A DNA stretch of 64,000 nucleotides from an uncultured Clostridia bacterium (lineage in GTDB: Bacteria > Bacillota > Clostridia > Christensenellales > UBA1242). The position numbers and the translations under genes were made by a program. The notes beneath the pieces are model-generated. The model searched no databases. It saw only the letters and a program-made list of their open reading frames with translations, and was not told the DNA's origin. Positions 3,875 through 55,741 of this stretch are shown here, one piece after another (position 1 is the first letter of the stretch; each line of letters opens with the position of its first letter). The DNA lies in NCBI GenBank assembly GCA_944377415.1, contig CALWEW010000003.1, positions 3,753 to 67,752 on the forward strand, given 5' to 3'.

Positions 3875-3882
3875 GGGGATGT

Positions 3883-4500: not shown

Positions 4501-4516
4501 TTACTGTAAAGATATT

Positions 4517-4670: not shown

Positions 4671-4703
4671 GTAACAAAATATTTAAGGAGTTTAAAGTTA
4701 CAT

Positions 4704-5604: not shown

Positions 5605-6010
5605 AGTATTGCATTTCACCGTACTGAACATTACGCGACTTACGGTCGTCTTCAATCAGTTCATTAATAAGGTTTCGAACTTTTGAAGGATTTTTAATTC
5701 TTATTAAATCGACATGGTCATTTGATGCGTCTTTACAGTAAACTTTCAAAGTTCCTGTTCCCCAAAATTTATTTGTAAATGATTCAAATATCGTTGTGTC
5801 ATCTATACGGAAAACATTTACTTCTTCGATATGGCTTGTAAAAAAACCTATATCAGCAATTAATTTAACCCATTTACCAGGTTTTTTTACAATGCTATAA
5901 CGAGTAAATGACAGGGGGAGTCCGCACCAACGCTTACGGTCGTGCCATAGTTCGACGCAGTCATCGCCATACTTTGTGGCTGCTGTTGATTTTGACATAC
6001 TACACCTCAC
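5603..6010 (-). CDS. bacterial PH-domain (bPH_2/YdbT-like) protein
   Basis: 135 aa. The pattern FTRYSIV...G.F.....EV...RIDD......F...WGTGTL.V......DHVDLIRIKNP..V matches the bacterial pleckstrin-homology (DUF304-type) domain as I recall it. Confidence 0.6.
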   Translation of the reverse strand: MRCSMSKSTAATKYGDDCVELWHDRKRWCGLPLSFTRYSIVKKPGKWVKLIADIGFFTSHIEEVNVFRIDDTTIFESFTNKFWGTGTLKVYCKDASNDHVDLIRIKNPSKVRNLINELIEDDRKSRNVQYGEMQY

Positions 6011-6114
6011 AATAATTTTCTAGAAGAGAATACCACATTTCAAAGCAAAAGTAAATAGATTTTGCGTGATAAAATTCTGTTTAGGCAGAACACAAAGTTT
6101 GTTAGTGATAATTG

Positions 6115-6858: not shown

Positions 6859-6862
6859 AATT

Positions 6863-7306
6863 TTAGTTTATTACGACAGTGCCGTCTTTGTGAATGGTTA
6901 TTGTATCGCCTGTTTTTACAGAGTCGAGAAATTCTTTGCCGAGTTTGTCGATTGCTATCATGGGGCTGTTTTCCCAAATTTTAGCGAGTATTACACCACT
7001 TGCTGCAAGGGAGTCTATTTCTTCACTAAATAACATCGCGCTGGGATTTACACCCATGGCGCAAATTGTTTGCAGAACCATTCCACCCGTAGTCGAACCG
7101 ATTGTTTGCGGTAGGCACAAGATTTTCCCTGTGATTGCTTTTCCGTAAATGTCAGGGTTGTTTTGGTCACTACCGATTATAACCTTTGCGTTTTTTAATG
7201 CGCTTTTTTGAAAAGTTGCAAGAGTGTTTACTCCAGCACGCGACACAAGGGCTTCCCCTGTAAGTTCGCCTGCATTTATTACTCGTCCTTTAAAAGTTTT
7301 TTCCAT
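6863..7306 (-). CDS. aconitase X swivel-domain subunit (DUF126 type)
   Basis: 147 aa. The opening MEKTFKGRVINAGELTGEALVS...G.N is typical of AcnX small subunits. It lies 3 nt downstream of the AcnX catalytic subunit. Confidence 0.75.
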   Translation of the reverse strand: MEKTFKGRVINAGELTGEALVSRAGVNTLATFQKSALKNAKVIIGSDQNNPDIYGKAITGKILCLPQTIGSTTGGMVLQTICAMGVNPSAMLFSEEIDSLAASGVILAKIWENSPMIAIDKLGKEFLDSVKTGDTITIHKDGTVVIN

Positions 7307-7309
7307 AGT

Positions 7310-8584
7310 TTATTTCTCCTTTCCTGTAATTATATCAAGAAGTTCTTGTTCGCGATAAAAGCGTGCTGCTGTATAGGTGCGAAGTTTATTTGAGCAAGTC
7401 ATAATAGGGCGGGAGTGTGTAAGCGGATTGTTTAGATACATCAACGGACAAATGCTTGTTAGTTTTGCGCCCGCTGCTTCAAGTTTTAAAAATTGTGTAG
7501 TTTTGCGGAACTCTTTTGCAATGGCGGGTGATGTACAAAGAATTGTTCGGCAAGTTACTTTTGTGCGTCCGTTTCTAATTAGGTTATCAAAAATTTTGTT
7601 TGTCCAGTCATTTAATTGTTCAGTTGATAGGTGAGGACAGCCGATAAAACAAAGTGCTGGTTTTGCGTTTTTGTTTTTCCACAGAATGGGATAGTTGTCA
7701 TAAGTTTTTTGCAAATACTCATCGTCTATAACAAGAGTTTTTGCATCGCTTTTTATAAGTTTTTCGCCAAGTTCTACAGCTTCGGGAGTAAGATTTGCGA
7801 CATGGAACAAGCCGACAGCACCATTACTTGCGCTCGCTGCGCCCATATCTTTTAAGTATGAACAAGTGTGGTCATCAAGTTTTGTGCCGATAAATTTGTC
7901 AAGCCCTTTTATGTAAGGAACACCATCGCCGACAGCAATGCCGATTGCGCTACCCAAAATTTGAGCCTCTGGAATGTGAGTCGTTTTGACTTCAATAACC
8001 CAGTTTGCTTTGCGGTTTTCATCAAGCAACAAGCCAAATTCAGGAACTTTACCGAGAATGAGCCCGAAAAGGTCAATCATACCGCTGTTACGGTTGCAGC
8101 GTGCCCCGAGAACAGAGTTTGCGTAAACGACTGCGCTACTTTCAGCCCATGATAAAATGTCGCCTTTTTTTGGAATATTATTCATTTCAGGGGAGTAGCA
8201 AGCACAACTAAACGCATCTTCATCGCGGAGACCTACTTGATTTAATTGAATTTCGTAATCTTTTTGCTTACCGTACATAATTTTGCTGAAAACGAGTTTG
8301 TCCAAAATGTTACATTTTACATTCTCGTAATCAATAGGGCGAGGGTCTGCTGTAAATTTGAATTTTGTTTTGATACCTGCATCAATAATTTCTTGCATTG
8401 TACGGTACAAAGGTTTAAGTAGGGGAATACCCATACTTGTAACAATGTGTCCGTCATGAGTAACATCAACGAAGCGTTCTGCGCCAAAAATGTCGCCGAT
8501 TTCAATCATCGTACGCATAATTTTTGACATTACTTCGCCTTGAGAACCATCTAAAATTGCTTGTTCTTCTTTCGTTAGTTGCAT
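7310..8584 (-). CDS. aconitase X catalytic subunit (DUF521 type)
   Basis: 424 aa. The N-terminus MQLTKEEQAILDGSQGEVMSK...ERFVDVTHDGHIV matches the AcnX large-subunit pattern, and the gene is paired with a swivel subunit. Confidence 0.75.
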   Translation of the reverse strand: MQLTKEEQAILDGSQGEVMSKIMRTMIEIGDIFGAERFVDVTHDGHIVTSMGIPLLKPLYRTMQEIIDAGIKTKFKFTADPRPIDYENVKCNILDKLVFSKIMYGKQKDYEIQLNQVGLRDEDAFSCACYSPEMNNIPKKGDILSWAESSAVVYANSVLGARCNRNSGMIDLFGLILGKVPEFGLLLDENRKANWVIEVKTTHIPEAQILGSAIGIAVGDGVPYIKGLDKFIGTKLDDHTCSYLKDMGAASASNGAVGLFHVANLTPEAVELGEKLIKSDAKTLVIDDEYLQKTYDNYPILWKNKNAKPALCFIGCPHLSTEQLNDWTNKIFDNLIRNGRTKVTCRTILCTSPAIAKEFRKTTQFLKLEAAGAKLTSICPLMYLNNPLTHSRPIMTCSNKLRTYTAARFYREQELLDIITGKEK

Positions 8585-8695
8585 AACTATCTCCTTTTTA
8601 AATTTTATAATATTTTTGGTTCGGTTAAATTGTGTTGTTTGCTATGTTGATTTAGTTTTTGTGAACATTTTTAATTTGCGATTTTTAATTTACGC

Positions 8696-9241
8696 TTACT
8701 TTTCGGGCAAAATTTTGATTACGCGAGCAGGAACGCCAACAGCAACTGCGTTGTCGGGAATGTCTTTTGTAACAACGGCGCCCGCGCCGATTACTGCGTT
8801 TTTGCCTATTGTTACGCCTGGCATTATCACACAGTTTCCACCGAGCCACGCATTATCTTTTATCACAATGGGGCGACTTAAGATTATAGTATTTTTGCGG
8901 TCGAGAGCATCAAGTGGGTGATAAACTGTAAAAATATTTACATTTGGCGCGATGCGTACATCGTTGCCGATAGTGATAGTTGTGTCGTCGAGCATAACAC
9001 AATTATAATTTATGTCAACATTGTTTCCTATGCTAATGTTATATCCGTAATCACAATGAAAAGGCTCTTTTACGGTTACATTTTCACCGATATGCTTAAA
9101 AATTTTTTCTAGCATTTTGCGCCTTTTCCTTTCATTTAATGGGCAAATTTTATTGTACTTTTGGCAAAGCGTGTATGCTATTGTTCGGTCTGTGTGTCTG
9201 CTATCATTATTCCTTCCATCGCGTCTTATTTCTTCGAACAT
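8696..9241 (-). CDS. maltose/galactoside O-acetyltransferase-like (left-handed beta-helix, Maa family)
   Basis: Hexapeptide repeats are present (IGNNVDINYNCVMLDD..ITIGNDVRIAPNVNI...IKDNAWLGGNCVIMPGVTIGKNAVIGAGAVVTKDIP), together with an N-terminal Mac-type region. Confidence 0.8.
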   Translation of the reverse strand: MFEEIRRDGRNNDSRHTDRTIAYTLCQKYNKICPLNERKRRKMLEKIFKHIGENVTVKEPFHCDYGYNISIGNNVDINYNCVMLDDTTITIGNDVRIAPNVNIFTVYHPLDALDRKNTIILSRPIVIKDNAWLGGNCVIMPGVTIGKNAVIGAGAVVTKDIPDNAVAVGVPARVIKILPEK

Positions 9242-9262
9242 TCAATCTTGCTCCTTGCTTAA

Positions 9263-11518
9263 TTATATATCTCTTGCTACGCGATAAGCGCTCTTTGTTG
9301 CGGCAAAAACTTTGCTAGGTCTAATTGCATCGCCTACACGAACAATACGGGGAGCAGCACGCTCTTCAACAAGTTTAAAATAAATGTCATCACATGGGCG
9401 AGTACCGATTGCTAAAATTACAAGGTCGGCGGGGAGGAGTTTGTTTTCATACTTTTCGCTAATTTTTGGAGCAAGTGGATTATGTATGTTTTCGGGTAGA
9501 ATTGGCTGCCAAGTATTATATGGATTTGGAACGGACGAGTGAACATTTTTCTTTATAAATACCGCATCTTTGTCAATTTGAGTAACTGTGCTTAAATTGT
9601 GAGTTACGACACCAGACTTTTCAAGATAGTGCAAAATATGTCCACGATTTGCGGTGCAGGTGTCTGCCATAAGGTTTGCGGTCATCTCTACAATCTGAAC
9701 ATTTTTTCCGAGTTCAAGTGCAGCCCAGTATGCAGTTTCGCAACCAGAATCGCCACCGCCGATAATTACAATATTTTGCGCCTTTTTAACTCTTTCGGGG
9801 TCAAGAAGTGCTTCGGTTACAGTCATTACATTTTCGCCATCAGCACCCTTGATTTGCGGGCGAACAATGTGGCTACCAGTTGCCACGACTATTGTCTCGA
9901 ATTTGCCTTTTAGTTCATCAACAGTTGCCTCAACGCCGAGTTTTAGGGTAAAACGCGGGTTTTTCTTTAATTCGTTTATTTCATGTTGCAAGTATTTCAT
10001 ATAATTGTTGATTTCGTACTTGATTTTTGGCACGCCACCAGCACGCAAAGTTCCACCGATTTCATTTTCTTTTTCGAACAATACGACAGTATGCCCACGG
10101 GCAATTAGTGCTTTTGCAGCAACAACACCAGCGGGACCACCACCGATAACGGCTACTTTTTCAGCATTCGAAGCAACAGGAATTTCACGAGAGAAAACCT
10201 CTTCAAATGCGGTACGAGGGTTAACGGCACATTGCGGGTGTCCGCCTTCGACAAATTCGCGAATACAAGCCTCGTGGCAACCGATACAAGGGCGAATTTC
10301 TTCGGTTGCACCGCGATATGCTTTGTTTGCCCATTCAGGGTCAGCAAGAAGCGGGCGAGCAAGCATAATCATATCACACTTTTCATCGCGAAGGGCTTGC
10401 TCCGCTAGGTCGGGATAGCCGAGTTTACCGACAGCAACAATAGGTACAGGAAGTCCCGCATTTGATAAAACTTTATTAACGCTAAAATACTTTTTAACTA
10501 ACTCGGCAATTTCAAGGAAACAACCACTCGGCATACTTGCGGGCGGGTGAGGAAGCCACCAGTTGTCATAACAACCGAGGTCAACATCAAATATATCAAC
10601 ACCCGCTTTTACAAGGTTTGTCATGTAGTCGAGAGTTTGTTGAATAGTACGCTCGTTGCGGAATTTTTTAAGCGATTTGATTTTTTCCATTTTATCTTGA
10701 TAAGTTGCATTTAAGGCAAGCGACAAGTCAATTCGATACATAATAGGATATTTGTCGCCGCAGCGTGCGCGAATTTCTTTTACAACATCAATACCAAAGC
10801 GTTGCCAATCGCTGTATTTGCCCATACTACGCCTGTTAAATGCGGGGTTTGTTAGTTGTTCAAGAAGATAACCTTCATGTCCGTGTAAATACACGCCGTC
10901 AATATTCATTGCTTTTGCATCAGCAGCGGCTTGCCCGAATTTTTTAACAAGTTTGCCTAGAGCCATTCCACTTAATCTACGGCTAGGAATTTGTGGAATA
11001 TAGAAGTTAGGATTCCATGAAGCGCTTACAGGGAGTTTAAATTGAGTGAGCAAGCACTGCGGGTTGCCAACGCGACCAAGTCCTGCAGTAAGCTGGATGA
11101 AAAACGCCGCGCCGTGTGAGTGAATACTTTGAGTGAGTTCACGCCAACCAGAATAAACTGTTCTAGAACGGTCGATACGGGGGAAATAACTTAATTTATC
11201 TAATTCTGTAACTGTTGAGTCGATACCGTGGCTTACGGGAATAAGTCCGCTCGTAATAAGTCCTACGCCACCGCGAGCGCGTTCTGTGAGATAACTAATC
11301 ATTTTTTGATTTGGGCGACCGGTTTCTTCTGCCATGTTTATATTTCCCATGGGTCCCATAACAAGTCTATTTTTTATAGTTAAATGGTTTACAGTAATAG
11401 GGCTAAACATCGAGGTGTAGGGATATAAATTATTTGTCATCGTAGGTGTAGCAAAATCGTGCTCCCACCATTTACCGAACGAATCTTCTAGGTCAAAGAG
11501 TACTTTGTCATTTACCAT
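9263..11518 (-). CDS. 2-enoate reductase / 2,4-dienoyl-CoA reductase family flavoenzyme (OYE TIM barrel, 4Fe-4S, FAD/NAD(P) domains)
   Basis: MGPMGN...GGVGLITSG is OYE-like. CIGCHEACI...C is a Cys cluster. VAVIGGGPAGVVAA and IVIIGGGDSGCE are two dinucleotide-binding GxGxxG motifs. Confidence 0.8.
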   Translation of the reverse strand: MVNDKVLFDLEDSFGKWWEHDFATPTMTNNLYPYTSMFSPITVNHLTIKNRLVMGPMGNINMAEETGRPNQKMISYLTERARGGVGLITSGLIPVSHGIDSTVTELDKLSYFPRIDRSRTVYSGWRELTQSIHSHGAAFFIQLTAGLGRVGNPQCLLTQFKLPVSASWNPNFYIPQIPSRRLSGMALGKLVKKFGQAAADAKAMNIDGVYLHGHEGYLLEQLTNPAFNRRSMGKYSDWQRFGIDVVKEIRARCGDKYPIMYRIDLSLALNATYQDKMEKIKSLKKFRNERTIQQTLDYMTNLVKAGVDIFDVDLGCYDNWWLPHPPASMPSGCFLEIAELVKKYFSVNKVLSNAGLPVPIVAVGKLGYPDLAEQALRDEKCDMIMLARPLLADPEWANKAYRGATEEIRPCIGCHEACIREFVEGGHPQCAVNPRTAFEEVFSREIPVASNAEKVAVIGGGPAGVVAAKALIARGHTVVLFEKENEIGGTLRAGGVPKIKYEINNYMKYLQHEINELKKNPRFTLKLGVEATVDELKGKFETIVVATGSHIVRPQIKGADGENVMTVTEALLDPERVKKAQNIVIIGGGDSGCETAYWAALELGKNVQIVEMTANLMADTCTANRGHILHYLEKSGVVTHNLSTVTQIDKDAVFIKKNVHSSVPNPYNTWQPILPENIHNPLAPKISEKYENKLLPADLVILAIGTRPCDDIYFKLVEERAAPRIVRVGDAIRPSKVFAATKSAYRVARDI

Positions 11519-26961: not shown

Positions 26962-28182
26962 CTAAACCTGCCTTATTACTTCGGCAAATGTTTGACTCTC
27001 ATCGTAAAATTCTGGCTTGCCTTGAATGTAATTCTCCCTAATTAGTTTTATGTGGCAGTTGCATAATTTATCCAGAATATCTAAATAATCCCTTAATTTT
27101 TCATCAGTACAATTTGTATAGCCCGAACAAATTATACTTAAACTTCCATTGTTTGTATTCCTACTGTAAGCAAATAAGCGTTTAAGTTGTTGCAAAATTT
27201 CGTCATCATAAGATTTAGCAGGACAACGGTCAGACAATAAATCACGCAAGTTTGTCATAAGAGTAGTAATATCGTCAATTATTAATACAACATTATTGCC
27301 TAATTCGCATATACGCTTAATTCTGTCAAGAATAATTTCAAAATAAAAATTAATGTCAGCAGGTAAGGTATCAAAAGTTGTAAAGAAGTACTCACAGTTT
27401 TTAAGTAAGATTTTTTCTTCGGGGCGCTTACAAACAGAAAAGTAGACAACTTTGTACCTTTCATCTAAATCTTTTGCTATACTGTTGCATAAGTAAGTTT
27501 GTCCTGCACCGTTTTCACCGACTATCATTAAACGCTGACCAATTTTAAATGGACAAACCTTATTTATAAATTTTAGTTGAGGCAGAGTAAATTCTATTGT
27601 GTTACTTATTGGAGAAATTTCCATTTGAGCAAAGTCTTGACGAGTAAGTGTTGGGGGACAATCGTTAATTTCGTAAATTTCAAGCACGCGCGGGGTTCTT
27701 TCTTGGAAGTGTATACCGCACTTGATTTTATCACCATTTCGCAAATTTTCAAAGTGTAGTGTGTTTTCTTCAATAATAGCGTAAACATTTATATCCAGGC
27801 TTTGAGAACTTGTAGGGAAGAAATACAAAGTGTCGCCAATGTATTTTACAAAACCCGTGTAAATATTTTCACGCACTTCTTTTAATTTGCTGCCTTCGGT
27901 CGAGTATAATGCGCCTGTTGTTTTCGAAAATGCCTCAAAGCCAACAAGTTTATTCCATTCACTGTCAGGAATAATTTCTTTTTTGTGAGGTCTGCCACTT
28001 TTAATTTTTAAATAAGGCTCAACTTTTCCTGTAACAACATCAACTATTGCTTGGCGCAATTCCTCCGCTTTTAATGCAGTAGGGTTTCGCACGCCTATTT
28101 TAGAGCCTACTTCTCGTAGTTGGTATAAATTTAGTGTTCTTAATTTTTCAATATCAACTCTGTATTTATCGTTTTTGTTCAT
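26962..28182 (-). CDS. Rho-like protein (Rho_N, OB/RNA-binding-like and RecA-like domains) with degenerate ATPase motifs
   Basis: Collinear similarity to E. coli Rho, aligned from memory. N-terminal helix bundle: LNLYQLREVGSKIGV..P.ALKAEELRQAIV. OB region: ENLRNGDKIKCGIHFQERTPRVLEIYEIND versus [32 protein letters not shown]. P-loop position: GQRLMIVGENGAGQT versus GQRGLIVAPPKAGKT. Also VVLIIDDITTL versus VIILLDSITRL, and GSLSIICSG versus GSLTIIATA. Confidence 0.7.
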   Translation of the reverse strand: MNKNDKYRVDIEKLRTLNLYQLREVGSKIGVRNPTALKAEELRQAIVDVVTGKVEPYLKIKSGRPHKKEIIPDSEWNKLVGFEAFSKTTGALYSTEGSKLKEVRENIYTGFVKYIGDTLYFFPTSSQSLDINVYAIIEENTLHFENLRNGDKIKCGIHFQERTPRVLEIYEINDCPPTLTRQDFAQMEISPISNTIEFTLPQLKFINKVCPFKIGQRLMIVGENGAGQTYLCNSIAKDLDERYKVVYFSVCKRPEEKILLKNCEYFFTTFDTLPADINFYFEIILDRIKRICELGNNVVLIIDDITTLMTNLRDLLSDRCPAKSYDDEILQQLKRLFAYSRNTNNGSLSIICSGYTNCTDEKLRDYLDILDKLCNCHIKLIRENYIQGKPEFYDESQTFAEVIRQV

Positions 28183-37046: not shown

Positions 37047-37072
37047 CAAAAAAGCGGGGTAACCGCTTTTTT
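37047..37072 (-). terminator. rho-independent terminator after the coupling-protein gene
   Basis: AAAAGCGG-GGTA-ACCGCTTTT hairpin (37050-37070) flanked by A and T runs, abutting the stop at 37071-37073. Confidence 0.6.
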
Positions 37073-39035
37073 AAAAGTTAAAGTTGTTATTGCTTAAAAC
37101 AAGTTTGTTTCGCTGTCTAATGTCATAGTAAATCTGGTCTTCGTTTATGAAGCGAGGAATAACATAATCATCATTCATAGGCTTCATATTATAAACATTG
37201 CTAACTTTGTATGCGAATGTAAATTCACTTTTTAAGGCTTTTTCCTTAAACATTGACACAATCATTTCACCTTTCTTTAAGTAGCCGAGTTCGTCAGGTG
37301 TAATGAGTGCACGACTGACACGCTGAACATTAGTCGACTTTGTTGTGTCTTGTTTTGACTTGCTTTCACTTGTTGATTTTGCTTCGACACTCGTTTGTCC
37401 GCATCGAGCGCTAAATTCTTCTTTTGTTTTTTGGTCTTCTGTACCTAAGTATACATGTACATTACAGTTTGATTTGATAACATCTGCCGCTGCTTCACCA
37501 TATTTGATTTCGACCTGTCTGTAACTTTGTACGACGAGCATGAGCGCGATTCCACGGCTACGACCGACAGTTACAATACTTTCAAATCTAGGAATTTTTG
37601 GCATGTTTGCAAACTCGTCAAGAATAAAATAAACATGGCGAGGAAGTTCTAGTTTCGGCGTTCGACTTGCGACTTCAACAAGGGTTTTGTACATTTGCAA
37701 TACGCACATTTGTGCTATAGGGTGGCGCGTTTCTTTTTCGTCGGGAACCTTGATAAATAGCGCTGTTGGTTTGTCTGCAAAGTGTTCAAAATCAATTTCG
37801 TCTGCACTAGTAGCAAAACATACACCGCTATCAGCAAATACATTAACAGCATTTGATACCATACCAAAGTAAGAGCGAGTTGTACCAGGTGCATTGTTTA
37901 CAATAGGACCTGCAAGGGTAGTTGCGTTTGACATGGGTCCACGCCCTTCAAAATATTTTTGCAGTGAGCCAAATTGTCTGTCGGGGTCGGCATCGCGCAC
38001 ATTACATATCTTATATAAATTAAAGAAATTATATTTCTCTGCTGTCATATTAAGACGCGGGTCGGCGGAGTCTTCGAGCATGGCTAGCATAGTGCCTAGG
38101 ATAAAGTCCTTTGCGCCTTGTTGCCAGCTTGCATCATTAGTACCCTCTGATACAGGACTTAGGGACATCGCAATGTCATTTAGGTCTTCAAACGCCGAGT
38201 CAATTAGACCTTTTCTCGTGGCGGTTAACTGGCTTTCTATTGAGTCGCGGTTCGGAAAAGCGACTCCCTCAAACTCGTACCACTCGTTATCATACACTGG
38301 GGAAATGACACGAAGTCCACAGTCAGCGGGGTTTTCGTTGCGGTGGACAATTACTTCTTTTCTCAGATTTAGCGCGCGTTGATAGTTTTTATAAGGTTTG
38401 TACATCGGGTTCCAGCGCGTACTTGAATACGGATTTCGCAGGTCAAAAGTAACTAGGGTGTAGCCCTCGTCTTTTAACTTGTTGCCGTGCATATTATATA
38501 ATTCACCCTTAACGTCCATGATTACCAAACTTGGTTTTGTTGAGGTGCTTGCCAAAATTTGAATAGTAGGGGAAATATAACCAGCAGTTTTACCACTACC
38601 AGTAGTACCTACAATCATAGTGTGCCAAACTTCGTGTAGAAGATTTACCTTTACATTGTTTCCAACCGCTTGCGCGCGAATAGGCACACCGTCTTTGTGA
38701 CTATGAAGGTCGCGAAAAAAACAACCATCGTACTTTTTATTAAGTTCTTGTTCTGTAAGCCATTCAGAATCGAAAAACTGCTCCGTTGGCTTTTTACCGT
38801 CTTTTTTCTTTTTATCTGATGACTTAAACATAGATTTGCCATTTGCTGCTTGCACTAAAATGTAAAGAATGAAGGCAACCATTATTAGAGCCCAAATACC
38901 CCACGAATAACCGCCCATAATTCCTTCAACAGTAATTGAGCCTGTTTCTAAAAATGAGCCGATTATACACGATATGCCGTAACCCAAAATAGCAACGACA
39001 ACAAAAGCCCAGAAATACTTCCAAAACTTATTCAT
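37071..39035 (-). CDS. type IV coupling protein (VirD4/TraG family ATPase)
   Basis: Two N-terminal TM helices. Walker A GTTGSGKT (nt 38586-38609). Walker B region YFILDEFANMPKIP. The segment GRSRGIALMLVVQSYRQVEIKYG is typical of TraG/VirD4. Confidence 0.85.
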   Translation of the reverse strand: MNKFWKYFWAFVVVAILGYGISCIIGSFLETGSITVEGIMGGYSWGIWALIMVAFILYILVQAANGKSMFKSSDKKKKDGKKPTEQFFDSEWLTEQELNKKYDGCFFRDLHSHKDGVPIRAQAVGNNVKVNLLHEVWHTMIVGTTGSGKTAGYISPTIQILASTSTKPSLVIMDVKGELYNMHGNKLKDEGYTLVTFDLRNPYSSTRWNPMYKPYKNYQRALNLRKEVIVHRNENPADCGLRVISPVYDNEWYEFEGVAFPNRDSIESQLTATRKGLIDSAFEDLNDIAMSLSPVSEGTNDASWQQGAKDFILGTMLAMLEDSADPRLNMTAEKYNFFNLYKICNVRDADPDRQFGSLQKYFEGRGPMSNATTLAGPIVNNAPGTTRSYFGMVSNAVNVFADSGVCFATSADEIDFEHFADKPTALFIKVPDEKETRHPIAQMCVLQMYKTLVEVASRTPKLELPRHVYFILDEFANMPKIPRFESIVTVGRSRGIALMLVVQSYRQVEIKYGEAAADVIKSNCNVHVYLGTEDQKTKEEFSARCGQTSVEAKSTSESKSKQDTTKSTNVQRVSRALITPDELGYLKKGEMIVSMFKEKALKSEFTFAYKVSNVYNMKPMNDDYVIPRFINEDQIYYDIRQRNKLVLSNNNFNF

Positions 39036-39427: not shown

Positions 39428-39817
39428 ATGAGTGCACTCATGTTTCAAGCGGCCAACGCTATTATGAACTCTGCTGCAGGCTTCCCTTTGTTAGCTGATG
39501 GTTCAGACCCTACAACACCTGACATTAATTCAGGACAATGGGCTTGGGTAGGTGAAATTGTTGATGCAATTAACACAATTCTTTATCCTTTGCTAATTCT
39601 TCTTGCTACAGCAGGTGTGATTTACGCCATAATTTTGGGTGTAAAATTAGCGCGTGCCGAAAGTGCGGACCAGCAACAGGAGGCAAAAAAGCGTTTGGTA
39701 AACTTTATTATTGGTCTTGTTGCGGTAATTGCGTTGATACTTCTCATGAAGTTGGTATGTACTTATCTTCCTGAATGGGTACCTAGCCTTTACATTGACA
39801 CTTCAACAGGTAACTAA
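39428..39817 (+). CDS. small two-helix membrane protein, VirB2/TrbC-pilin-like topology
   Basis: 129 aa with a GGAGG ribosome-binding site. A possible signal peptide ends at ...FPLLA/DGS. Two hydrophobic helices (ILYPLLILLATAGVIYAIILGV and LVNFIIGLVAVIALILLMKLV) are separated by a charged loop, KLARAESADQQQEAKKR. It is the first gene of the T4SS arm. Confidence 0.5.
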   Translation: MSALMFQAANAIMNSAAGFPLLADGSDPTTPDINSGQWAWVGEIVDAINTILYPLLILLATAGVIYAIILGVKLARAESADQQQEAKKRLVNFIIGLVAVIALILLMKLVCTYLPEWVPSLYIDTSTGN

Positions 39818-42463: not shown

Positions 42464-44920
42464 TTGCAGGGTACATCGATGCTCGGTATTTGGCCGATAG
42501 ATGAAATCATAGATTGGTTTAGTAGCGCATTTACTACATACATTGTTGACCCGATTGTTAACTTTTTCTCGTATGTTTTAGGTGTAATTTTATACGGCTT
42601 GCAAATGGGTTTGTTCTACATAATGGACGCAGTGCAACTCGTTTTCCGTAGGGCTGCTGGACTTGATATCTACTACAATAACGGTGTTGCGGTCGAGGGC
42701 GACTTAACTATTCAATTTTTCCAAAGTTCGACAGTGCAAGCAGTATTCATCTCGATTTTGGTTGCTGCTATATTCTTGTTGTTTATCACAACATTTATTG
42801 CGGTTATTAAGACTGAGTTTGATGAAAAAGACAACGCAAAAGGTCCAATATTTAAAAACGCCTTAAAGGCAATTTTGTATTTTGCAATTGTTCCTGTTGT
42901 TTGTTTCCTAGGTGTTTGGGTCTCGAACATGGTCTTGCGAATGCTCGACGATGCAACATCTCGTGGAGCAGAATCATTTTCGACTCAAGTATTTACTGCT
43001 GCGGCATTCAACGCAAATCGAGCGCGGGACGATGCTGAATTTGCGCAAAATGTCTATAATAATTGTAAATGGATACCGGGAATGGAGTCCATAACTTACA
43101 GTCAAAGCGGTGTCGCGGATTTAATTGACACGGCGTTTCGGTCGGCTTTGCAGCCAACTACTGATGACCACTCTGCGCAGGTAACTATTAATCGCGGGTG
43201 GGATACGACAGTTACATTCTCGTCATTTGATAAAAACAATTATAATCTTGTATTCTACTTTTACGACCCATTAGATTATAACTATATTATAGGTTACATA
43301 TCATCTGTAGCGGTGGTTATGATACTACTAAAACTGCTAATTGGTGTAATACTCCGAATATTTGAATTAACAGTGCTTTTCGTGCTTTCTCCACTTGCGG
43401 TTTCTCTCATGCCGTTAGACGGTGGAGAGAGATACAAGGCTTGGCGTGGGGCGTTTGTAAAACGAACTTTCTCGGCGTATGGACCTATCATCGGTCTTAA
43501 CCTTGTATTTATGGTTCTGACGCTACTTCAAACAGTTCAGTTATTCCCATCTGGAGGGATAAATGACCTTTATAATGCGATTGTTCAGTTAATATTCATA
43601 TTCACGGGACTTGTTGCAATTAACTCGCTTGTAGATTTGGTTACTGACTTAGTTGGACAAGGTAACGCGCTCAAAGAAGGCGAAGGTGCTGCTAAAGATG
43701 TAAAGTCTTTGGGTATGAAGACAACGGGACAATTAGCATCAGCTGGTGCTCGTCCTGCTACATGGACATACGACCGCGTAGCAAACGCTAGAAATAAGCA
43801 CAAAACTAAAAAAGCTGCGGAAGGATTGGCTTACGATGAGAATGGAGAAGTTGATATTGAAAACGGAACAGAGGGACTAAAGGGTGCTGGCTCTGGAGTG
43901 CGTGGCTGGGGAAGAAGACGCGTAGGTTCTGTTACCTCACTCGGTGGCCTCCGTCAAGGTGCTGCTGGAAGTATGGCAGAAGAGTATTCTACTCGTCGCA
44001 AACAATTGCAAAATGCTGAAAAACACCTTAGGGCAGGCGGTGAATATGGTATCAGGGATGAAAATGGAGAGTTTGTAACTGATGCAGATGGAAATTTTGT
44101 TACCAAAGGTGTCAATTATTGGAAGAATACAGGTCATAGCGTGTTAAAAGATTTAGCAAAGAATATTGACTTAGATAAGAAAGTTGAAGATACTAATAAG
44201 GCATTTGGTGCTAATCCAATTAGTGGCGCTGTTAAGAAAGTTTTGGACAATAGGGCTGATAAGAAGAAGTATAAAGATGCAAAAGAAGAAATGGAGATGA
44301 AGTCCCGTATAGAAGAAGAGTTGCGGGGAACTCCAGCACCCCAAAATACGGATACTGATTGGAATAGAAGAAAGGAGAGACTTAAAAAATCTAACGATAA
44401 TAATGGTGGTTTAGGTGATGGGACTGTTGGAAGTGCTTTGACATCCGCGGAAAGTCAAGGTGTGGGTACCGGCCCAGTTGTTGATTTAAGTCAAACAGGA
44501 GAGGTTCCTACTATTTCGGGTGATGTTCCTGCGGGTCAACAACAACCACAAAGCACTGAAACAGCTGGTGTCAACATCGATGGTGGTATCATTGATGAAA
44601 TTAGAAAACCTGTGCAAGTCGAAGTTAGCGAAAATGACGACCGCAATCTTAATGTTAACACACAAAAGGCTGACTTTAAATCACAAAATACTGAAAATAA
44701 AGGGCCTAATGGAGAGCAAAAAGTCAAGGTTGATAACAAAGTTAAGATTGACGATGCTGGTATTCGTCAAGCGGTACAAGATGTTGCAACAAATGTTAAT
44801 AGCACAAAGAAATCTATTGAATCGAAATTAAATGAAATTAAAGCTTCTCTTGAAAAATTAGGCAAGAGCAAAACAGGCAGAATATTTAGAGACAAAAATA
44901 ATGACGAAGGAAAAGAATAA
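42464..44920 (+). CDS. polytopic membrane protein, VirB6/TrbL-like position and topology, with a ~410-aa low-complexity tail
   Basis: AGGAGG lies 6 nt before TTG 42464 (an alternative ATG is at 42479). There are about seven hydrophobic helices in aa 25-400. The remainder is Lys/Glu/Gly/Asn-rich with no helices. Confidence 0.55.
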   Translation: MQGTSMLGIWPIDEIIDWFSSAFTTYIVDPIVNFFSYVLGVILYGLQMGLFYIMDAVQLVFRRAAGLDIYYNNGVAVEGDLTIQFFQSSTVQAVFISILVAAIFLLFITTFIAVIKTEFDEKDNAKGPIFKNALKAILYFAIVPVVCFLGVWVSNMVLRMLDDATSRGAESFSTQVFTAAAFNANRARDDAEFAQNVYNNCKWIPGMESITYSQSGVADLIDTAFRSALQPTTDDHSAQVTINRGWDTTVTFSSFDKNNYNLVFYFYDPLDYNYIIGYISSVAVVMILLKLLIGVILRIFELTVLFVLSPLAVSLMPLDGGERYKAWRGAFVKRTFSAYGPIIGLNLVFMVLTLLQTVQLFPSGGINDLYNAIVQLIFIFTGLVAINSLVDLVTDLVGQGNALKEGEGAAKDVKSLGMKTTGQLASAGARPATWTYDRVANARNKHKTKKAAEGLAYDENGEVDIENGTEGLKGAGSGVRGWGRRRVGSVTSLGGLRQGAAGSMAEEYSTRRKQLQNAEKHLRAGGEYGIRDENGEFVTDADGNFVTKGVNYWKNTGHSVLKDLAKNIDLDKKVEDTNKAFGANPISGAVKKVLDNRADKKKYKDAKEEMEMKSRIEEELRGTPAPQNTDTDWNRRKERLKKSNDNNGGLGDGTVGSALTSAESQGVGTGPVVDLSQTGEVPTISGDVPAGQQQPQSTETAGVNIDGGIIDEIRKPVQVEVSENDDRNLNVNTQKADFKSQNTENKGPNGEQKVKVDNKVKIDDAGIRQAVQDVATNVNSTKKSIESKLNEIKASLEKLGKSKTGRIFRDKNNDEGKE

Positions 44921-45180: not shown

Positions 45181-47913
45181 ATGAGCGTTAAATATATTCC
45201 GCGTAGAACAAAAGTTAAAATGGAGTTTTGGAAAGGTATTACTATTGCTGATATTGTTTTTATCGCAATAGGTATTGCTGTTTTGTTGCTCCTTATATTT
45301 AGTCAAGGTATCTCTACCGACTTAAAAATCTATTTAAGTGTTGCTTGGGTAGCTATAATTGGTTCGCTATTTTTACCCATTGCAGATAACAAGCGCCTTT
45401 ATGCAACGCTTGGTATATTATTCAAATTTTTTGCCTATAAGAAAAAATACTCAAAGCACCCGATGCGTGGGCATGTTGATATTGGTGAGATTATTCCTTA
45501 TAAAGCGATTGCGAATGATATGATTGACTTTAAGGAATATTTTGCAGCCGCTCTTGAAATAAGGCCAATTGAGTTTGGATTATTAAATAGCGAAAAACAG
45601 GAAGGTGTAATTCGTACTGTAGCAAACGCTTTGCGATTAGTTGCTGTTGGACAGCAGGTTAGTATTATAAAATCTTCTAAACCTATGGTTATGGATGGAT
45701 ATATTTATAACGAAGACCGCAAGTTTGACTCGGTAATTGAGTTGTCAAGTGATGGCGAAATGACCGAGGACGAAGTAAATGCCCGTAGCGAAATTTTCGA
45801 AGCGCGTATGCAGCACTTGCGCGACCTTGCGAATATGGAAAAAACCTTCATGGACCATTTCTACATTGTGGTATACGACAAAGACCGTGAAGGATTGCGA
45901 ACGACCATAGAAGGTATGGTAAGCGAATTGGCTAAGGGTATAGTGCCTCTTATGTCGTGGAGATTAAAAGACAATGACCTTGCTATTTTCCTAAAATCAA
46001 CTTTTGGCGAAGATTTTAATGAGTCCGAACTAGGACTTCACTCAATTGCTGAATATGCTGATTGGACAATTCCCGAAGAGGTTGTGTTTAAAACGAGTAA
46101 AACAATTATTGATGGACAAGCGTACACCAACTTTTCAATTACAGACTATCCCGTGTCAGTGCCAAATGCGTGGGCATGGCCGTTCTTTAATTTAGGTAGC
46201 ACAAAGGTAGTTGTCAACCTTACTCCTTTGCAAAAAGACAAATCCGAACGCACAATCGACCGTTCAATCGTCGAACTTGAAGGGCGTATGCGTTCAACAT
46301 TTAAGTCTAGTAAACAAATTGATTTGCAGGCACAACATGAAACATTGACTGACTTGCTTAGTGACTTAAAAATCGGTAATGAAGACCTTTTTGATGTGCA
46401 TATCAACATTATGTGTGCCGAGAGTGTAAAAAAGGAAGTTCGTGCAATATTAAAGCAAAACGGCTTTAAATATAGTGAAATGTTCGGTAGGCAAGTAGAG
46501 GCATTTATTAATACAAATATTAGTAGAATAGACAATAACATAGAGAGCAGCCGTAATATTCAAACAACTTCAATTGCAGCGATGTTTCCATTTATTTCGA
46601 ACACCCTACAAGATAGTAAAGGGTTCTATGTAGGCTATAACTCGTATCCTGTTTTTGTTGACTTTTTCGTCAACATGGACAAAGACAACCCACTGCATGA
46701 CGAGCGCGTAAACGCGAACATGATTGTTATAGGTAAGTCTGGTTCGGGTAAGTCGTACGCAACAAAGACACTGCTTGCAAATCTTGCCGCCGATAATACG
46801 CGTATATTTATTCTTGACCCCGAAAAAGAATATACTGACTTAACTAAAAATTTGCATGGAAAGTATATTGATGTAGGTAGTTCGGTACATGGAATTTTGA
46901 ATCCCTTCCATGTAATGACGAATTTATCTGATGATGACGAAGAAGAAATCGTAATCACTGGTGAGGAAACAGAAGAGGAACTTGTTGAAATTGAGCGCAA
47001 AAAAGCGCTAGCCGCTAAAAAGTCTACGGACTCGTTCAACATGCACTTGCAGTTTTTGGAAGAGTATTTTCGTATTATTTTTGACGGCATGAGCGGTGAT
47101 GCGTTTGAGATTTTGAACTCGCTTGTTGTGCAAATTTACAATGATAAGCGCATCGATAGTTCGACAGATTTGTCTACTTTAAATCCCGAAGATTATCCGA
47201 TTTTTGATGACCTTTATAATTTGATAAATAAACGAATTGAAGCCGAAACTGACGAATACATTAGGCGTAATTTGCAAATTTTGCAGGTGTATGTTCAAAA
47301 ATTCGCAACAGGTGGGCGCAACTCAAAGTTGTGGAATGGCCCGACGAGCATTGAAACCGATGAAAACCTTGTCTGCTTTAACTTCCAGTCGCTTCTTTCT
47401 AACCGTAACATGACTGTTGCAAGTGCACAAATGTTACTTGTATTTAAATATCTTGACAACGAGATTTTAAAGAACAAGGACTTTAACGAAAAGTATAAGA
47501 CGAACCGAAAAATAATTGTAACGGTTGATGAGGCACACTTGTTCATTAACCCGAAATATCCCGTTGCCCTTGAATTTATGGCGCAAATGGCTAAGCGTAT
47601 TCGTAAATATAATGGTATGCAAATTGTAATTACGCAGAATATTAAGGACTTTGTCGGTAGTAAAGATATTGAGCGTCAGGCGAGTGCGGTTATTAACGCG
47701 AGTCAGTATTCGATGATTTTCTCGCTTTCGCCAAACGACATGACCGACCTTGTAAACTTGTACCGCAACGCTGGTGAGATTAACAAGGACGAACAAGATA
47801 CAATCGTTACTGCTGGTCGTGGTCAGTGTTTCTTCATTGCGAGTCCGTATAGCCGTACTACATTCATTATTGAAGCAAATCCAGCAATTAAGAAGATAGC
47901 AGGATTAAAATAG
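45181..47913 (+). CDS. VirB4-family T4SS ATPase with an N-terminal VirB3-like two-TM extension
   Basis: Two TM helices in the first 70 aa. Walker A IGKSGSGKSYATKT (GKSGSGKS is nt 46732-46755). Walker B IIVTVDEAHLF. The segment QIVITQNIKDF is present. The 910-aa size is typical of VirB4/TraE/PrgJ-class proteins. Confidence 0.9.
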   Translation: MSVKYIPRRTKVKMEFWKGITIADIVFIAIGIAVLLLLIFSQGISTDLKIYLSVAWVAIIGSLFLPIADNKRLYATLGILFKFFAYKKKYSKHPMRGHVDIGEIIPYKAIANDMIDFKEYFAAALEIRPIEFGLLNSEKQEGVIRTVANALRLVAVGQQVSIIKSSKPMVMDGYIYNEDRKFDSVIELSSDGEMTEDEVNARSEIFEARMQHLRDLANMEKTFMDHFYIVVYDKDREGLRTTIEGMVSELAKGIVPLMSWRLKDNDLAIFLKSTFGEDFNESELGLHSIAEYADWTIPEEVVFKTSKTIIDGQAYTNFSITDYPVSVPNAWAWPFFNLGSTKVVVNLTPLQKDKSERTIDRSIVELEGRMRSTFKSSKQIDLQAQHETLTDLLSDLKIGNEDLFDVHINIMCAESVKKEVRAILKQNGFKYSEMFGRQVEAFINTNISRIDNNIESSRNIQTTSIAAMFPFISNTLQDSKGFYVGYNSYPVFVDFFVNMDKDNPLHDERVNANMIVIGKSGSGKSYATKTLLANLAADNTRIFILDPEKEYTDLTKNLHGKYIDVGSSVHGILNPFHVMTNLSDDDEEEIVITGEETEEELVEIERKKALAAKKSTDSFNMHLQFLEEYFRIIFDGMSGDAFEILNSLVVQIYNDKRIDSSTDLSTLNPEDYPIFDDLYNLINKRIEAETDEYIRRNLQILQVYVQKFATGGRNSKLWNGPTSIETDENLVCFNFQSLLSNRNMTVASAQMLLVFKYLDNEILKNKDFNEKYKTNRKIIVTVDEAHLFINPKYPVALEFMAQMAKRIRKYNGMQIVITQNIKDFVGSKDIERQASAVINASQYSMIFSLSPNDMTDLVNLYRNAGEINKDEQDTIVTAGRGQCFFIASPYSRTTFIIEANPAIKKIAGLK

Positions 47914-54194: not shown

Positions 54195-54217
54195 AACAGA
54201 GCGCGTGCTCTGTTTTT
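54193..54217. terminator. bidirectional terminator between convergent genes
   Basis: AAACAGAGC-GCGT-GCTCTGTTT forms a perfect hairpin with A and T runs on both sides. Confidence 0.7.
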
Positions 54218-55235
54218 AATATCTTAAATAAGGGTTTCCTGTTTTTTGCTCGGGAATGTTTATAGGCTCTTTTATCATTTCAGCATGCTTTGAATATTCG
54301 TTAAACTCCATGTAGTCGAATTTGGCAATATCTTCGGCGCTTTTCGTTTTAAGCATTTTTTTCATATTTTGAATTTTGGCGATTTCCAAAACGCTTTCAA
54401 TGCTACAATTTTCGCGTATGATAGTCATGTCGGCTGAAATATTGTAAAATGCCATGTATTCTTCTAAACACTTATCAAATGGTGCACCTTCTAATTCGGG
54501 TAAGTGAATAGGGCAAGAGTGTTCGCGTTTGTCGCGGTCTTCCGTTGTAAATCGTGGACGGTGCACATGAGGAAAGGGTACGGTTTCTGGCATCATTTCT
54601 GTGTGCTTTTCTTTCGGTTGGTATTTTTGAATTCGATTTTTATTCTTTAAATGTGCCTTTTTTACTTTGTGTGCAAGTTCTTGTTTGTTGTTATCAAGAC
54701 GACTTATGAAATAAAAACCGTCCTCGTAACCACCTACAATTGCGTAAAGATTGAAAGAAAAGTGCTCGGGTTGGTCTACATCGCGACAAACACTAAATCG
54801 ATATAAAACTGGCAATGCGCGGTCTCGTTGAGTGTCCAAGGTTGGAGCCACGGAAAAATAGTGTGTTTTGCTATAATGATGCCCATTATAGCTGTAGTTA
54901 AAGTGGAATGTGTGAAAAATATATTTAGGTGCAGCAGCCATAATGTTATATTGCTTTGGTGTGCAGTAAATGTTGTATTTTTGCATTCTCGCGCGCTCTA
55001 AGAGCGGAAGATTTGAGATGAGCAAATTCTTTTTTAATTGAATTGCATCAATTGGAAAAGCGCGACTGCGATTTTCTTTTTTTTGTTTGCTGACCTTTGG
55101 TGAGTAAATGTGGTAAACGCGTCCGTAAGGGAAATTTTCTTGCTGAAATTCTATATCTTGTCTAGATGCTAGCGGAGACGGGTGGTAGATACGAGTGAGA
55201 GATAATTTTTCTAACTCTGATGAATTTTCTTCCAT
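54216..55235 (-). CDS. hypothetical protein (339 aa)
   Basis: Long ORF, His/Lys/Tyr-rich, with no motif recognised. Confidence 0.5.
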   Translation of the reverse strand: MEENSSELEKLSLTRIYHPSPLASRQDIEFQQENFPYGRVYHIYSPKVSKQKKENRSRAFPIDAIQLKKNLLISNLPLLERARMQKYNIYCTPKQYNIMAAAPKYIFHTFHFNYSYNGHHYSKTHYFSVAPTLDTQRDRALPVLYRFSVCRDVDQPEHFSFNLYAIVGGYEDGFYFISRLDNNKQELAHKVKKAHLKNKNRIQKYQPKEKHTEMMPETVPFPHVHRPRFTTEDRDKREHSCPIHLPELEGAPFDKCLEEYMAFYNISADMTIIRENCSIESVLEIAKIQNMKKMLKTKSAEDIAKFDYMEFNEYSKHAEMIKEPINIPEQKTGNPYLRY

Positions 55236-55352: not shown

Positions 55353-55376
55353 AGAAAAAAGCACCTAAAGGGTGCT
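55353..55376 (-). terminator. terminator following the duplicated tRNA 3' fragment
   Basis: Minus strand reads GCACC-CUUUA-GGUGC followed by UUUUUU. Confidence 0.6.
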
Positions 55377-55381
55377 TTTAC

Positions 55382-55405
55382 TTTTGGTGCGGCCAAGAGG
55401 ACTTG
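55382..55405 (-). repeat. 24-bp direct repeat duplicating the 3' end of tRNA-Leu (T-loop/T-stem 3' strand, acceptor 3' strand, CCA, plus AAAA)
   Basis: TTTTGGTGCGGCCAAGAGGACTTG at 55382-55405 is identical to 55598-55621. No matching tRNA 5' half lies upstream of this copy. Confidence 0.85.
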
Positions 55406-55570
55406 TAACAAGCGCACAAAGTGCTGCGCAGTATCAATAGTGTAGGCATAAGTAGTAACAATAAAATGGCAGAGCCATATTGCCGAGCGTGCGTCCACGA
55501 AAGGGGAGGTTGCACGGGGGCTGTGCCCGTGCAGCGCTTTTTTGAAAGCGCGCAAGTCCTCTTGAAAGCA

Positions 55571-55594
55571 AAACAAAAACACCCTTTCGGGTGC
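55571..55594 (-). terminator. terminator of tRNA-Leu
   Basis: Minus strand reads CACCC-GAAA-GGGTG followed by TTTTTGTTTT, beginning 7 nt after the CCA end. Confidence 0.7.
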
Positions 55595-55600
55595 GTGTTT

Positions 55601-55688
55601 TGGTGCGGCCAAGAGGACTTGAACCTCCACGGCTTTAAAAGCCACAAGATCCTTAGTCTTGTGCGTCTGCCAATTCCGCCATAGCCGC
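55601..55688 (-). tRNA. tRNA-Leu, anticodon AAG (class II, long variable arm, encoded CCA)
   Basis: Hand-folded as follows. Acceptor GCGGCUA/UGGCCGC. D arm GCG-GAAUUGGCAGA-CGC. Anticodon stem CAAGA/UCUUG with loop CUAAGGA (anticodon nt 55652-55654). Variable stem GGCUU/AAGCC. T arm GGAGG-UUCAAGU-CCUCU. 3' end ACCA. Confidence 0.9.
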
Positions 55689-55712: not shown

Positions 55713-55741
55713 AGTATATCACATGAAAAAAGAAAAATCAA
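55713..55741 (-). promoter_or_regulatory. sigmaA promoter of tRNA-Leu
   Basis: Minus strand reads TTGATT, a 17-nt spacer ending in TGA, then TATACT, about 25 nt upstream of the mature 5' end. Confidence 0.5.

Follow-up and report, generated by a model that had tools for sequence, protein, structure and literature searches.

The 3' ends of tRNA genes are classic landing sites of genomic islands and prophages, and the short repeats found there are usually treated as dead scars. A 64,000-nucleotide stretch of contig CALWEW010000003.1 from an uncultured Clostridia bacterium (Christensenellales), referred to here as the window, carries such a repeat at its single tRNA-Leu gene, and the two copies bound an insert of 192 nt. 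The question raised by this locus is what the insert is. An earlier analysis of the letters alone, called here the sequence-only reading, proposed either the remnant of an integrated and since deleted element or a small RNA with a tRNA-like CCA 3' end. Comparison with related loci points to a small element that is conserved between lineages and sits at a hot spot of mobile DNA, rather than to a private scar. The 216-bp unit to which the insert belongs is read here, with confidence that stops somewhat short of even, as a gene-less, att-flanked miniature integrative cassette that resembles a cis-mobilizable element (CIME) and whose strand-level fold appears to be under constraint.

Direct repeat at the 3' end of tRNA-Leu

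The 24-bp sequence TTTTGGTGCGGCCAAGAGGACTTG was present exactly twice in the window, at 55382-55405 and 55598-55621, with none expected by chance. No further copy was found in the 64 kb when up to three mismatches were allowed, and a shorter 15-mer probe of the repeat, again with three mismatches allowed, returned only the same two copies; the third copy that the sequence-only reading had envisaged as the far border of an island is absent from the window. A single tRNA-Leu(AAG) gene with an encoded CCA was called at 55601-55688 on the minus strand (ARAGORN; Rfam RF00005, 52 bits), and the proximal repeat copy therefore corresponds to tRNA positions 56-76 plus three trailer bases, which amounts to one half of the T-loop, the 3' strand of the T stem and that of the acceptor stem, and ACCA. 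At the distal copy no tRNA was called by ARAGORN or Rfam, and neither a 5' half nor a cloverleaf accompanies it.

Sequence search and both programs bore out the sequence-only reading as far as the repeat, its identity with the tRNA-Leu 3' end and the missing 5' half are concerned. The same holds for the similar minus-strand terminators after both copies (hairpins at 55594-55579 and 55379-55357, each a G+C-rich stem with a T run), for the 12-mer at 55553-55564 that is perfectly complementary to both copies, and for the hairpins named within the insert. As an exact 24-bp duplication of the 3' end of the target gene, with equivalents in the five other instances described below, the repeat has the form of att flanks. 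The parts of the locus, in the order in which they are met on the minus strand, are as follows.

55713-55741, minus strand: promoter of tRNA-Leu, sigma-70-like (TTGATT-17-TATACT with TG)
55601-55688, minus strand: tRNA-Leu(AAG) gene (ARAGORN, Rfam RF00005)
55598-55621, minus strand: proximal repeat copy b, tRNA 56-76 plus AAA trailer; the attL side in att terms
55565-55597, minus strand: trailer and intrinsic terminator (GCACCC-GAAA-GGGTGT, then TTTTTGTTTTG), the spacer between b and b'
55553-55564, minus strand: b', CAAGAGGACTTG, the antisense 12-mer, reverse complement of tRNA 56-67; complement of the local tRNA in 6/6 instances
55534-55551, minus strand: hairpin H1, GCGCTTT-CAAA-AAAGCGC; 7/7 pairs change on both sides across instances
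55511-55533, minus strand: hairpin H2, TGCACGGG-CACAGCC-CCCGTGCA
55483-55511, minus strand: conserved core, a' AACCTCCCC, loop TTTC, a* GTGGACGC, then ACGCTCGG
55430-55482, minus strand: variable A+T-rich part of Y, with the small hairpin ATGGC-TCT-GCCAT (55478-55466)
55412-55429, minus strand: hairpin H3, inner stem GCAC-TTT-GTGC
55406-55411, minus strand: junction motif TTGTTA directly 5' of the distal copy
55382-55405, minus strand: distal repeat copy b*, the displaced tRNA 3' end; the attR side in att terms
55357-55379, bidirectional: distal terminator-like hairpin AAAAGCACC-TAA-AGGGTGCTTTT, similar to the proximal terminator

Architecture of the insert

The insert has a G+C content of 51%, compared to 37.7% for the window, has no more 11-mer runs in common with the remainder of the window than chance would give, and contains only chance open reading frames (ORFs) overlapping the tRNA. 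Its minus strand folds more stably than shuffled sequences (z = -4.9 alone, -7.4 with flanks), and the minimum-energy fold is closed by the 12-nt pair.

Read on the minus strand, the insert contains two further tRNA-derived pieces beside b'. The segment a' (55511-55503) is the reverse complement of tRNA ~47-55, and a* is a tRNA-sense copy with one extra C. Taken together, b' and a' give the reverse complement of the contiguous tRNA ~47-67 (GTGGAGGTT|CAAGTCCTCTTG), with H1 and H2 sitting exactly between T55 and C56 of this inverted copy; the antisense 12-mer noticed earlier is therefore real and is refined to one half of an inverted tRNA copy, the other half being a'. The same two tRNA segments recur in sense orientation as a* and b*, separated by ~90 nt (Y). 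Since the split of the inverted copy, the split of the sense copy and the start of the direct repeat all fall at C56, three tRNA-derived junctions coincide at T-loop 55|56. Counted from tRNA position 56 in the T-loop up to the last base ahead of the distal copy, the unit measures 216 bp.

Two other descriptions of the insert were tried and rejected. For a giant palindrome, in which the X cluster would be the reverse complement of Y, no similarity above shuffles was found in any instance. For a degenerate inverted tRNA-Leu spanning the whole insert, only ~47-67 matched (47-74 in one relative, L036), and ARAGORN called none.

In a single metagenome sample (ERZ28614525), the end of one scaffold (L001) and the start of another (L002), both from the same strain, meet, one base apart, in the G5 run of the H2 loop, corresponding to window positions 55516-55518. 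Low coverage at the G+C-rich hairpin or population heterogeneity could account for this break. The window's own join across H2 is supported indirectly, by the complementary H2 halves on the two scaffolds of this sample and by single contigs that span the module in other species.

Recurrence of the module in other lineages

Forty loci were fetched (L-numbers), and the comparisons rest on six module instances. The relatives fetched through Ppx are uncultured Clostridia or Christensenella-like metagenome-assembled genomes (MAGs), the closest with 84% amino-acid identity. They keep the whole gene order including, as far as the loci reach, a type IV secretion system (T4SS) block, with a divergence like that of the flanks, and the only variable spot among them is the few hundred bases between a 339-aa ORF and the tRNA.

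Homologous modules of 170-250 nt were found at tRNA-Leu 3' ends in five other lineages, and the parts follow the same order in all six instances (the window, L009, L029, L031/L032, L038/L039 and L036), all from uncultured gut Clostridia. L009 is a Hadza MAG with 74% identical Ppx, and L036 is a human-gut contig found by the core motif. The att-site interpretation of the sequence-only reading thus held in part: the duplication of the tRNA 3' end is of att type and other elements use the same tRNA, and a private deletion scar is contradicted by the module in five more lineages. Recurrence of the arrangement with covarying structure in related genomes had been named in advance as the outcome that would speak for a functional RNA over a scar, and by that measure the covarying hairpins described below favor a constrained element.

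A covariance model of the left half (R1) recovered exactly six tRNA-Leu-linked copies and no other in 353 kb, and L027 (1-35) carries a fragment of the right end of the module. The six instances share b', a pair of hairpins, the core ACCTCCNC-TTYC-GTGGACGG-ACRCTCG, one further hairpin and the tRNA tail. The pattern CCTCCNCTTNCGTGGACGNACNCTCG matched the core in five of the six; in L038 the core is split by a 77-nt A+T-rich insertion (2127-2203) whose place, between ACCTCCCC and CTTCGTGGACGG, is precisely the apex of that hairpin. The junction motif before the tail is GCTA or GCTACA in L009, L029, L031 and L038, TTGTTA in the window and TTATTT in L036.

The module of L036 lies at another gene, tRNA-Leu(UAG). 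Its b' complements that tRNA over 19-20 nt and begins five bases past the CCA, which creates a 19-7-20 palindrome with no terminator between the arms. In L009 and L029, b' is 13-14 nt long and covers the complement of their own acceptor variant. The match of b' to the tRNA variant in these three instances means that the antisense arm follows the local tRNA. A copy at the UAG locus was also sought in the relative L040, where the locus differs (tRNA-Leu CAA) and no module was present.

The repeat in relatives does not stop at the tRNA end but takes in trailer and terminator as well, reaching about 70 nt in L009, 43 nt or more in L031 and some 30 nt in L038. L009 in addition carries part of a second unit, a leftover of the kind expected from a tandem array. 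The copy in the window is closest to those of L036 (73%) and L038 (71%). Between the window and L038, the region upstream is unalignable, its 54% identity equaling the shuffle baseline, compared to 71% in the module.

Covariation and folding

The sequences of H1 and H2 differ in nearly every lineage, and the helices are always perfectly Watson-Crick paired. Changes on both sides were counted at 13 of 22 pairs, a number reached by 0 of 500 shuffles, with slid-partner controls giving 1-6; the alignment was fitted to the structure, so that the count leans towards structure, and the individual changes are visible by eye. Between the window and L036, an H1 pair changes from G-C to A-T and an H2 pair from A-T to G-C, and between L009 and L029 an H2 pair changes from C-G to T-A. 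CGTGC-TTT-GCACG in L038 aligns to H3 of the window with two compensated pairs. The core helix is invariant across instances.

Not all tRNA-derived parts are kept equally. The distal tail decays on its 5' side (six mismatches in the first 13 bases in L038, and decay also in L009, L029 and L036) where b', H1 and H2 are intact. Complementarity of b' to the genuine tRNA is maintained over 9-20 nt in all six instances, and its pairing with the distal copy shrinks to 7 bp or less in L009, L029 and L038. What is conserved is thus the pairing of b' with the genuine tRNA and not the stem that it forms with the distal copy; the closure of a hairpin-rich loop by the 12-nt pair, as drawn in the sequence-only reading, is found in the minimum-energy fold of the window and fails as a general feature.

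When the whole unit was folded as a closed single strand, it formed a rod, capped by the terminator at one end and by TTYC at the other, in which b:b' and a':a* lie on either side of the X and Y hairpin clusters at 55|56. This fold was obtained in 5/5 complete units (z from -4.5 to -9.9), with a b:b' stem of 12-19 bp. The sense strand gave z values of -3.9 to -7.9, more negative than the antisense strand in 6/6 instances. None of the 12 H1/H2 stems contains a G·U pair, and because all stems are perfect, G·U pairs are uninformative about the strand of action.

Signals of an RNA gene were looked for in the same instances. No internal promoter was conserved on either strand in any of them, with weak matches only, and an intrinsic terminator separates the tRNA from the module in five of the six. 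In Rfam 15, the module of the window had no match at gathering score or at E ≤ 10, and the four loci covering three other instances had none at E ≤ 1, so the check for a known RNA family by covariance models came out negative. With no Rfam family, no promoter, a terminator before the insert in 5/6 and a CCA-bearing copy that is the least conserved part, the proposal of a small RNA with a tRNA-like CCA end was not upheld.

Integration hot spot at tRNA-Leu

Other elements have entered the same site. L003 and L004, which belong to the species of the window (Ppx 100%, tRNA and upstream DNA 99-100% identical), diverge from it right after CCA, and their DNA runs from there into the C-terminus of a type I restriction subunit. 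Defense islands of ~11 kb with type III restriction-modification genes, an SLFN/AlbA_2 protein and others, and with a large serine recombinase at the end, occupy L034 (569-11700) and L033 (1389-11700), and L015 represents the empty site for this type of island. Serine-recombinase islands lie at tRNA-Leu genes AAG and CAG, and the recombinase is also found in L031 (166-1698). Alignment of four recombinase genes showed that the 3' end of the gene encodes a pseudo tRNA tail (...GTTCGTGCATATTACCTCAATCCGCACCA) followed by host flank, and placed the att junction of all four at ...CCGCACCA inside the gene. The attB of these recombinases, a family with more than 7000 homologues, looks quasi-palindromic (GGTTC...GAACC, centre near GCA|CCA).

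In L011, an inovirus-like prophage (1161-9550) lies at the 3' end of tRNA-Leu(AAG) and encodes a Zot-family ATPase, a helix-turn-helix repressor, a tyrosine integrase and a Flg_new-repeat protein, with GTTGTGTCAAA-type repeats beside the integrase. Remnants of an arm of this prophage type are present in L008 and L029. The L011 prophage has no sequence similarity to the module, and its integrase has no relatives in viral contigs.

Two module instances are combined with such elements. In L031, the mini-cassette is separated from the tRNA by the serine-recombinase island, which uses the proximal tail copy, and in L029 the remnant of a tyrosine-integrase element follows the distal tail copy; either copy serves other integrative elements as an attachment site. 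Judged from their layout, these tandem arrangements appear accretion-like.

The interval shows further rearrangements. In L005 (8857-8945; closest species representative, Ppx 84%), tRNA-Leu is inverted relative to both flanks, pointing to a local inversion at the hot spot. L024-L028, from one species with an identical homologue of the 339-aa ORF, display at least three structural variants of the interval between tRNA and ORF, including a PHP-domain gene that is present or partly deleted (L024 2002-2874). An "element B" downstream of the tRNA in L006, L024 and L041 carries a 9-10-nt antisense copy of the tRNA end and trailer (CTTTGGTGCG). G+C-rich intergenic elements with a 12-bp closing stem around two or three perfect hairpins were seen ~90-175 nt past the tRNA in L012, at 6930-7030 in L040, and in L006, L024 and L041; such closing-stem-plus-hairpin elements may form a wider class in these genomes.

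Interpretation as a miniature integrative cassette and its alternatives

The cassette interpretation draws on the att anatomy, the hot spot, the tandems and the recurrence, together with the absence of RNA-gene signals (no promoter, no Rfam family); arms that follow the target and structure at the level of the strand count for it as well. The element would have arisen when site-specific recombination took place in tRNA-Leu, within the T-loop or at the 3' end, and it would supply a replacement tRNA tail and terminator, the original tail being displaced to the far end. It would act at the DNA level, with the inverted arm as the symmetric partner of the tRNA half-site for a recombinase, and in the folded strand b:b' and a':a* would rebuild a duplex mimic of the target around the crossover. 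Mobilization would take place in trans, now or until recently, by the integrase of a co-resident element. The predicted empty site is the tRNA joined directly to AAAGTAAAAGCACCC, and the predicted junction of a 216-nt circle reads ...GCGCTTGTTA|CAAGTCCTCTTGG...AAACACGCACCC.

A bolder version, which we consider quite improbable, regards the 200-300-nt unit as a living gene-less mobile element of a new kind, a folded mimic of the tRNA gene that is recombined into tRNA-Leu by the recombinase of a helper. Its single strand would fold to the closed rod, with the T-arm rebuilt around 55|56 and the hairpin clusters looped out. Such a folded-mimic strategy, like that of CTXphi or attC, would explain both the arms rewritten for each tRNA and the conservation of pairing only.

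Several observations weigh against the cassette interpretation. No autonomous parent was found, and apart from L036 the interior matched nothing else in the 40 fetched loci, in phage and plasmid collections or in viral, genome and metagenome scans. BLAST of the insert against the phage and plasmid collections gave no match; the H2 hairpin pattern had 0 hits in viral contigs, the antisense 12-mer combined with the tRNA tail 0 in genome and viral contigs, and a stricter two-block pattern 0 in metagenomes, with a looser core pattern finding L036 only and none in viral contigs. No integrase was detected in the window among the scanned ORFs of at least 120 aa, a scan in which a 5009-aa ORF was left out, and no excised or empty form of the cassette was seen. 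The crossover is ambiguous, the repeat having its left edge at different positions, 56 to 69, from one instance to the next; the crossover could lie at position 56, or near CCGCACCA as for serine recombinases. Covarying hairpins are not something that a double-stranded att arm would call for, and the folding of the strand is therefore a point that we infer. Finally, the divergence of the element tracks that of its host in L009, L029 and L031 (82/82, 69/63 and 67/61%), which looks like vertical inheritance and not recent mobility. The overall picture is one of mostly vertical descent of two subtypes, plus either constraint or some transfer.

There are two rival explanations, neither of which we consider likely. 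The module might be a structured RNA read through from the tRNA-Leu terminator, a 3' external transcribed spacer RNA that controls the maturation or folding of tRNA-Leu, or a stable small RNA (sRNA) derived from the trailer; its arms b' and a', joined by H1/H2, would be antisense to tRNA 47-67 and pair with the precursor in cis or with a* and b*. The functional trailer reportedly exemplified by E. coli 3'ETS-leuZ would be a precedent, and the module is oriented as the tRNA, with a second terminator at its far bound. The strong covariation of H1 and H2 and the more stable sense strand in all six instances suit an RNA, and in L036, where the antisense arm is rewritten for a different tRNA, the lack of a terminator after the tRNA means that the module must be co-transcribed there. 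The good intrinsic terminator before the module in the other five, the lack of a conserved promoter on either strand and of an Rfam family, and stems devoid of G·U pairs argue the other way, as does the CCA-bearing distal copy, which decays fastest, and the direct repeat still requires a DNA recombination event. Alternatively, and with comparably low probability, the module could be an inert relic of old integrations, its tRNA-derived pieces kept alike by short-tract gene conversion or templated quasi-palindrome correction, and its hairpins kept perfect without selection by the same template switching. Perfect stems throughout are what templated correction yields, and in the group of L009, L029 and L038 the intergenic DNA upstream of the tRNA, which bears the promoter, is conserved slightly better than the module (88% against 81%, 75% against 65-67%). 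The locus is moreover littered with degenerate rearranged relatives ("element B" in L006, L024 and L041; the L027 fragment), unrelated closing-stem-plus-hairpins elements occur elsewhere (L012, L040), and the copy in the window has a mismatch in a' (AACCTCCCC). Against a relic stand the non-tRNA motifs ACGCTCGG and GCTACA and the order of parts, which are kept across hosts with unalignable flanks (window and L038); RecA-type conversion would need tracts longer than b' (9-14 nt) and a' (9 nt), b' has been rewritten over 19 nt to fit another tRNA, and b* decays where b', H1 and H2 do not.

It is extremely unlikely that the insert is an arm (attP remnant) of the large-serine-recombinase defense islands, left behind after deletion of an island. 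In L031/L032 the recombinase gene does end 13 nt before GAGGACTTG-H1-H2-core, as an arm would suggest. The alignment of the four recombinase junctions, which lie inside the gene, contradicts the idea, and since the L031 flank past the junction consists of trailer, terminator and mini-cassette, the cassette preceded the arrival of the island. The islands of L034 and L033 have no such sequence at either end, and no such gene was found among the scanned ORFs of the window.

Comparison with known systems

CIMEs are decayed integrative and conjugative or integrative and mobilizable elements (ICEs or IMEs) that retain attL and attR, lack an integrase and often stand in tandem with incoming elements (PMC5704250). 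The module shares with them the direct repeat of the target's 3' end, the lack of recombination and transfer genes, and the tandems with other elements in L031 and L029. It differs in being only ~190 bp long and recurring in this tiny form in six lineages, and its inverted split target copy and covarying hairpins fall outside the CIME concept. Derivation from an ICE or IME, which defines a CIME, was not found for it, as no similarity appeared to the islands, prophages, plasmids and viral contigs searched.

The ssrA islands of Dehalococcoides use a serine recombinase to insert in the mid-T-loop of the transfer-messenger RNA gene, with 20-bp repeats, in tandem, some of them without integration modules (PMC3146451). 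Insertion in the mid-T-loop, a ~20-bp repeat of the 3' end of an RNA gene, a conserved short motif just upstream of each repeat and several layers at one locus, some of them gene-less, are common to both. The ssrA islands are kilobases long with cargo, however, no inverted target copy or hairpin scaffold is described for them, and the cassette's target is tRNA-Leu in Clostridia.

The attP(+) site of CTXphi consists of two inverted target-like sites that fold in single-stranded DNA, and its integration leaves one functional and two non-functional copies (PMC3089051). The module likewise has three target-like copies, a direct pair and an inverted one that a short spacer separates from the functional copy. 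Its layout of site copy, short spacer, inverted copy, body and site copy is of the same kind, its strand fold would rebuild a mimic of the target duplex, and a Zot-encoding inovirus-like prophage is present at the same tRNA in a relative (L011). Unlike CTXphi and the integrative mobile elements exploiting Xer (IMEX), the module has tRNA-Leu 56-76 as its target and no dif-like sequence, and it is gene-less and without a Rep gene and would need a helper.

Like integron attC sites, the cassette conserves structure over sequence and can be viewed as a site on a folded single strand, but it lacks the R''/R' consensus boxes, an integron integrase and a cassette ORF and is located at a tRNA 3' end. 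The sRNAs of tRNA 3' external transcribed spacers, such as E. coli 3'ETS-leuZ, are non-coding segments directly downstream of tRNA-Leu in the same orientation; the module, in contrast, is usually preceded by a terminator and carries sense and antisense tRNA copies and a direct repeat at the DNA level. Its clusters of perfect G+C-rich hairpins in an A+T-rich genome and the GTAG-like motif by H3 (GCTAC on this strand) recall repetitive extragenic palindromes (REPs), bacterial interspersed mosaic elements (BIMEs) and miniature inverted-repeat transposable elements (MITEs). Unlike these, it is single copy in the 64-kb window and at every one of the related loci (353 kb searched with the covariance model); it is bound to tRNA-Leu, and the neighboring gene is what its arms copy. 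The features of the module go beyond any described att remnant, and it is CIME-like without a known autonomous parent.

Genomic surroundings

The gene order in the right part of the window is Flg_new protein, SpoIIID, TtcA-like, the orphan 339-aa ORF, module, tRNA-Leu, ferredoxin, Ppx/GppA, MreB, MinD and MinE, and the left part is ordinary chromosome. The anticodon AAG (A34) of the tRNA-Leu is unusual for bacteria and is kept at the syntenic position across the clade (also in L005-L016, L024, L029, L034 and L038); it may be read through inosine.

The 339-aa ORF (54216-55235, minus strand) follows immediately downstream of the module, under a promoter of its own, and matched nothing in Pfam or NCBIfam. 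Only 10 homologues (41-100% identity) were found among 5.8 billion proteins, and those with fetched context, P0010 excepted, adjoin this tRNA-Leu locus. Interpretation of the module as the non-coding RNA of a retron was rejected, as the adjoining ORF has no RVT match, has its own promoter and is found without the module in other species.

A T4SS gene block of ~40 kb (window 11777-51441) includes genes for VirD4 (on the minus strand, 37071-39035), for a VirB4-like ATPase (45181-47913) and for a T4SS pilin (39428-39817), further for a Mycoplasma-ICE-like conjugal protein from the MMCAP2_0566/Mbov_0396 family (42464-44920) and a Rho-like ATPase (26962-28182), as well as giant ORFs of 5009 aa and 2790 aa, the latter without a Pfam match. 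No relaxase or integrase was recognized in the block. Synteny in related species, with the divergence of the flanks, holds at least for its right-hand part (from ~46 kb), and the fetched loci reach no further left. The block (11.7-52 kb) was also considered as the integrated island and rejected, since the region from the block through the tRNA is, as far as the fetched loci reach, syntenic across species and diverges as the flanks do.

Significance

A gene-less module of ~200 nt keeps a fixed architecture across deeply diverged gut Clostridia, with inverted and direct split copies of the target, three covarying hairpins and a conserved core, and it adapts its arms to a second tRNA. Were it a mobilizable cassette, it would be among the smallest integrative elements known and would show how att sites multiply at a hot spot, so that incoming defense islands and prophages could choose among sites without harm to the tRNA. 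Were it an RNA, a new type of antisense regulator linked to a tRNA would have come to light, possibly one that is encoded in cis and gates the maturation of tRNA-Leu. Either way, the module is a well-defined, testable object in the poorly studied uncultured Christensenellales-like bacteria.

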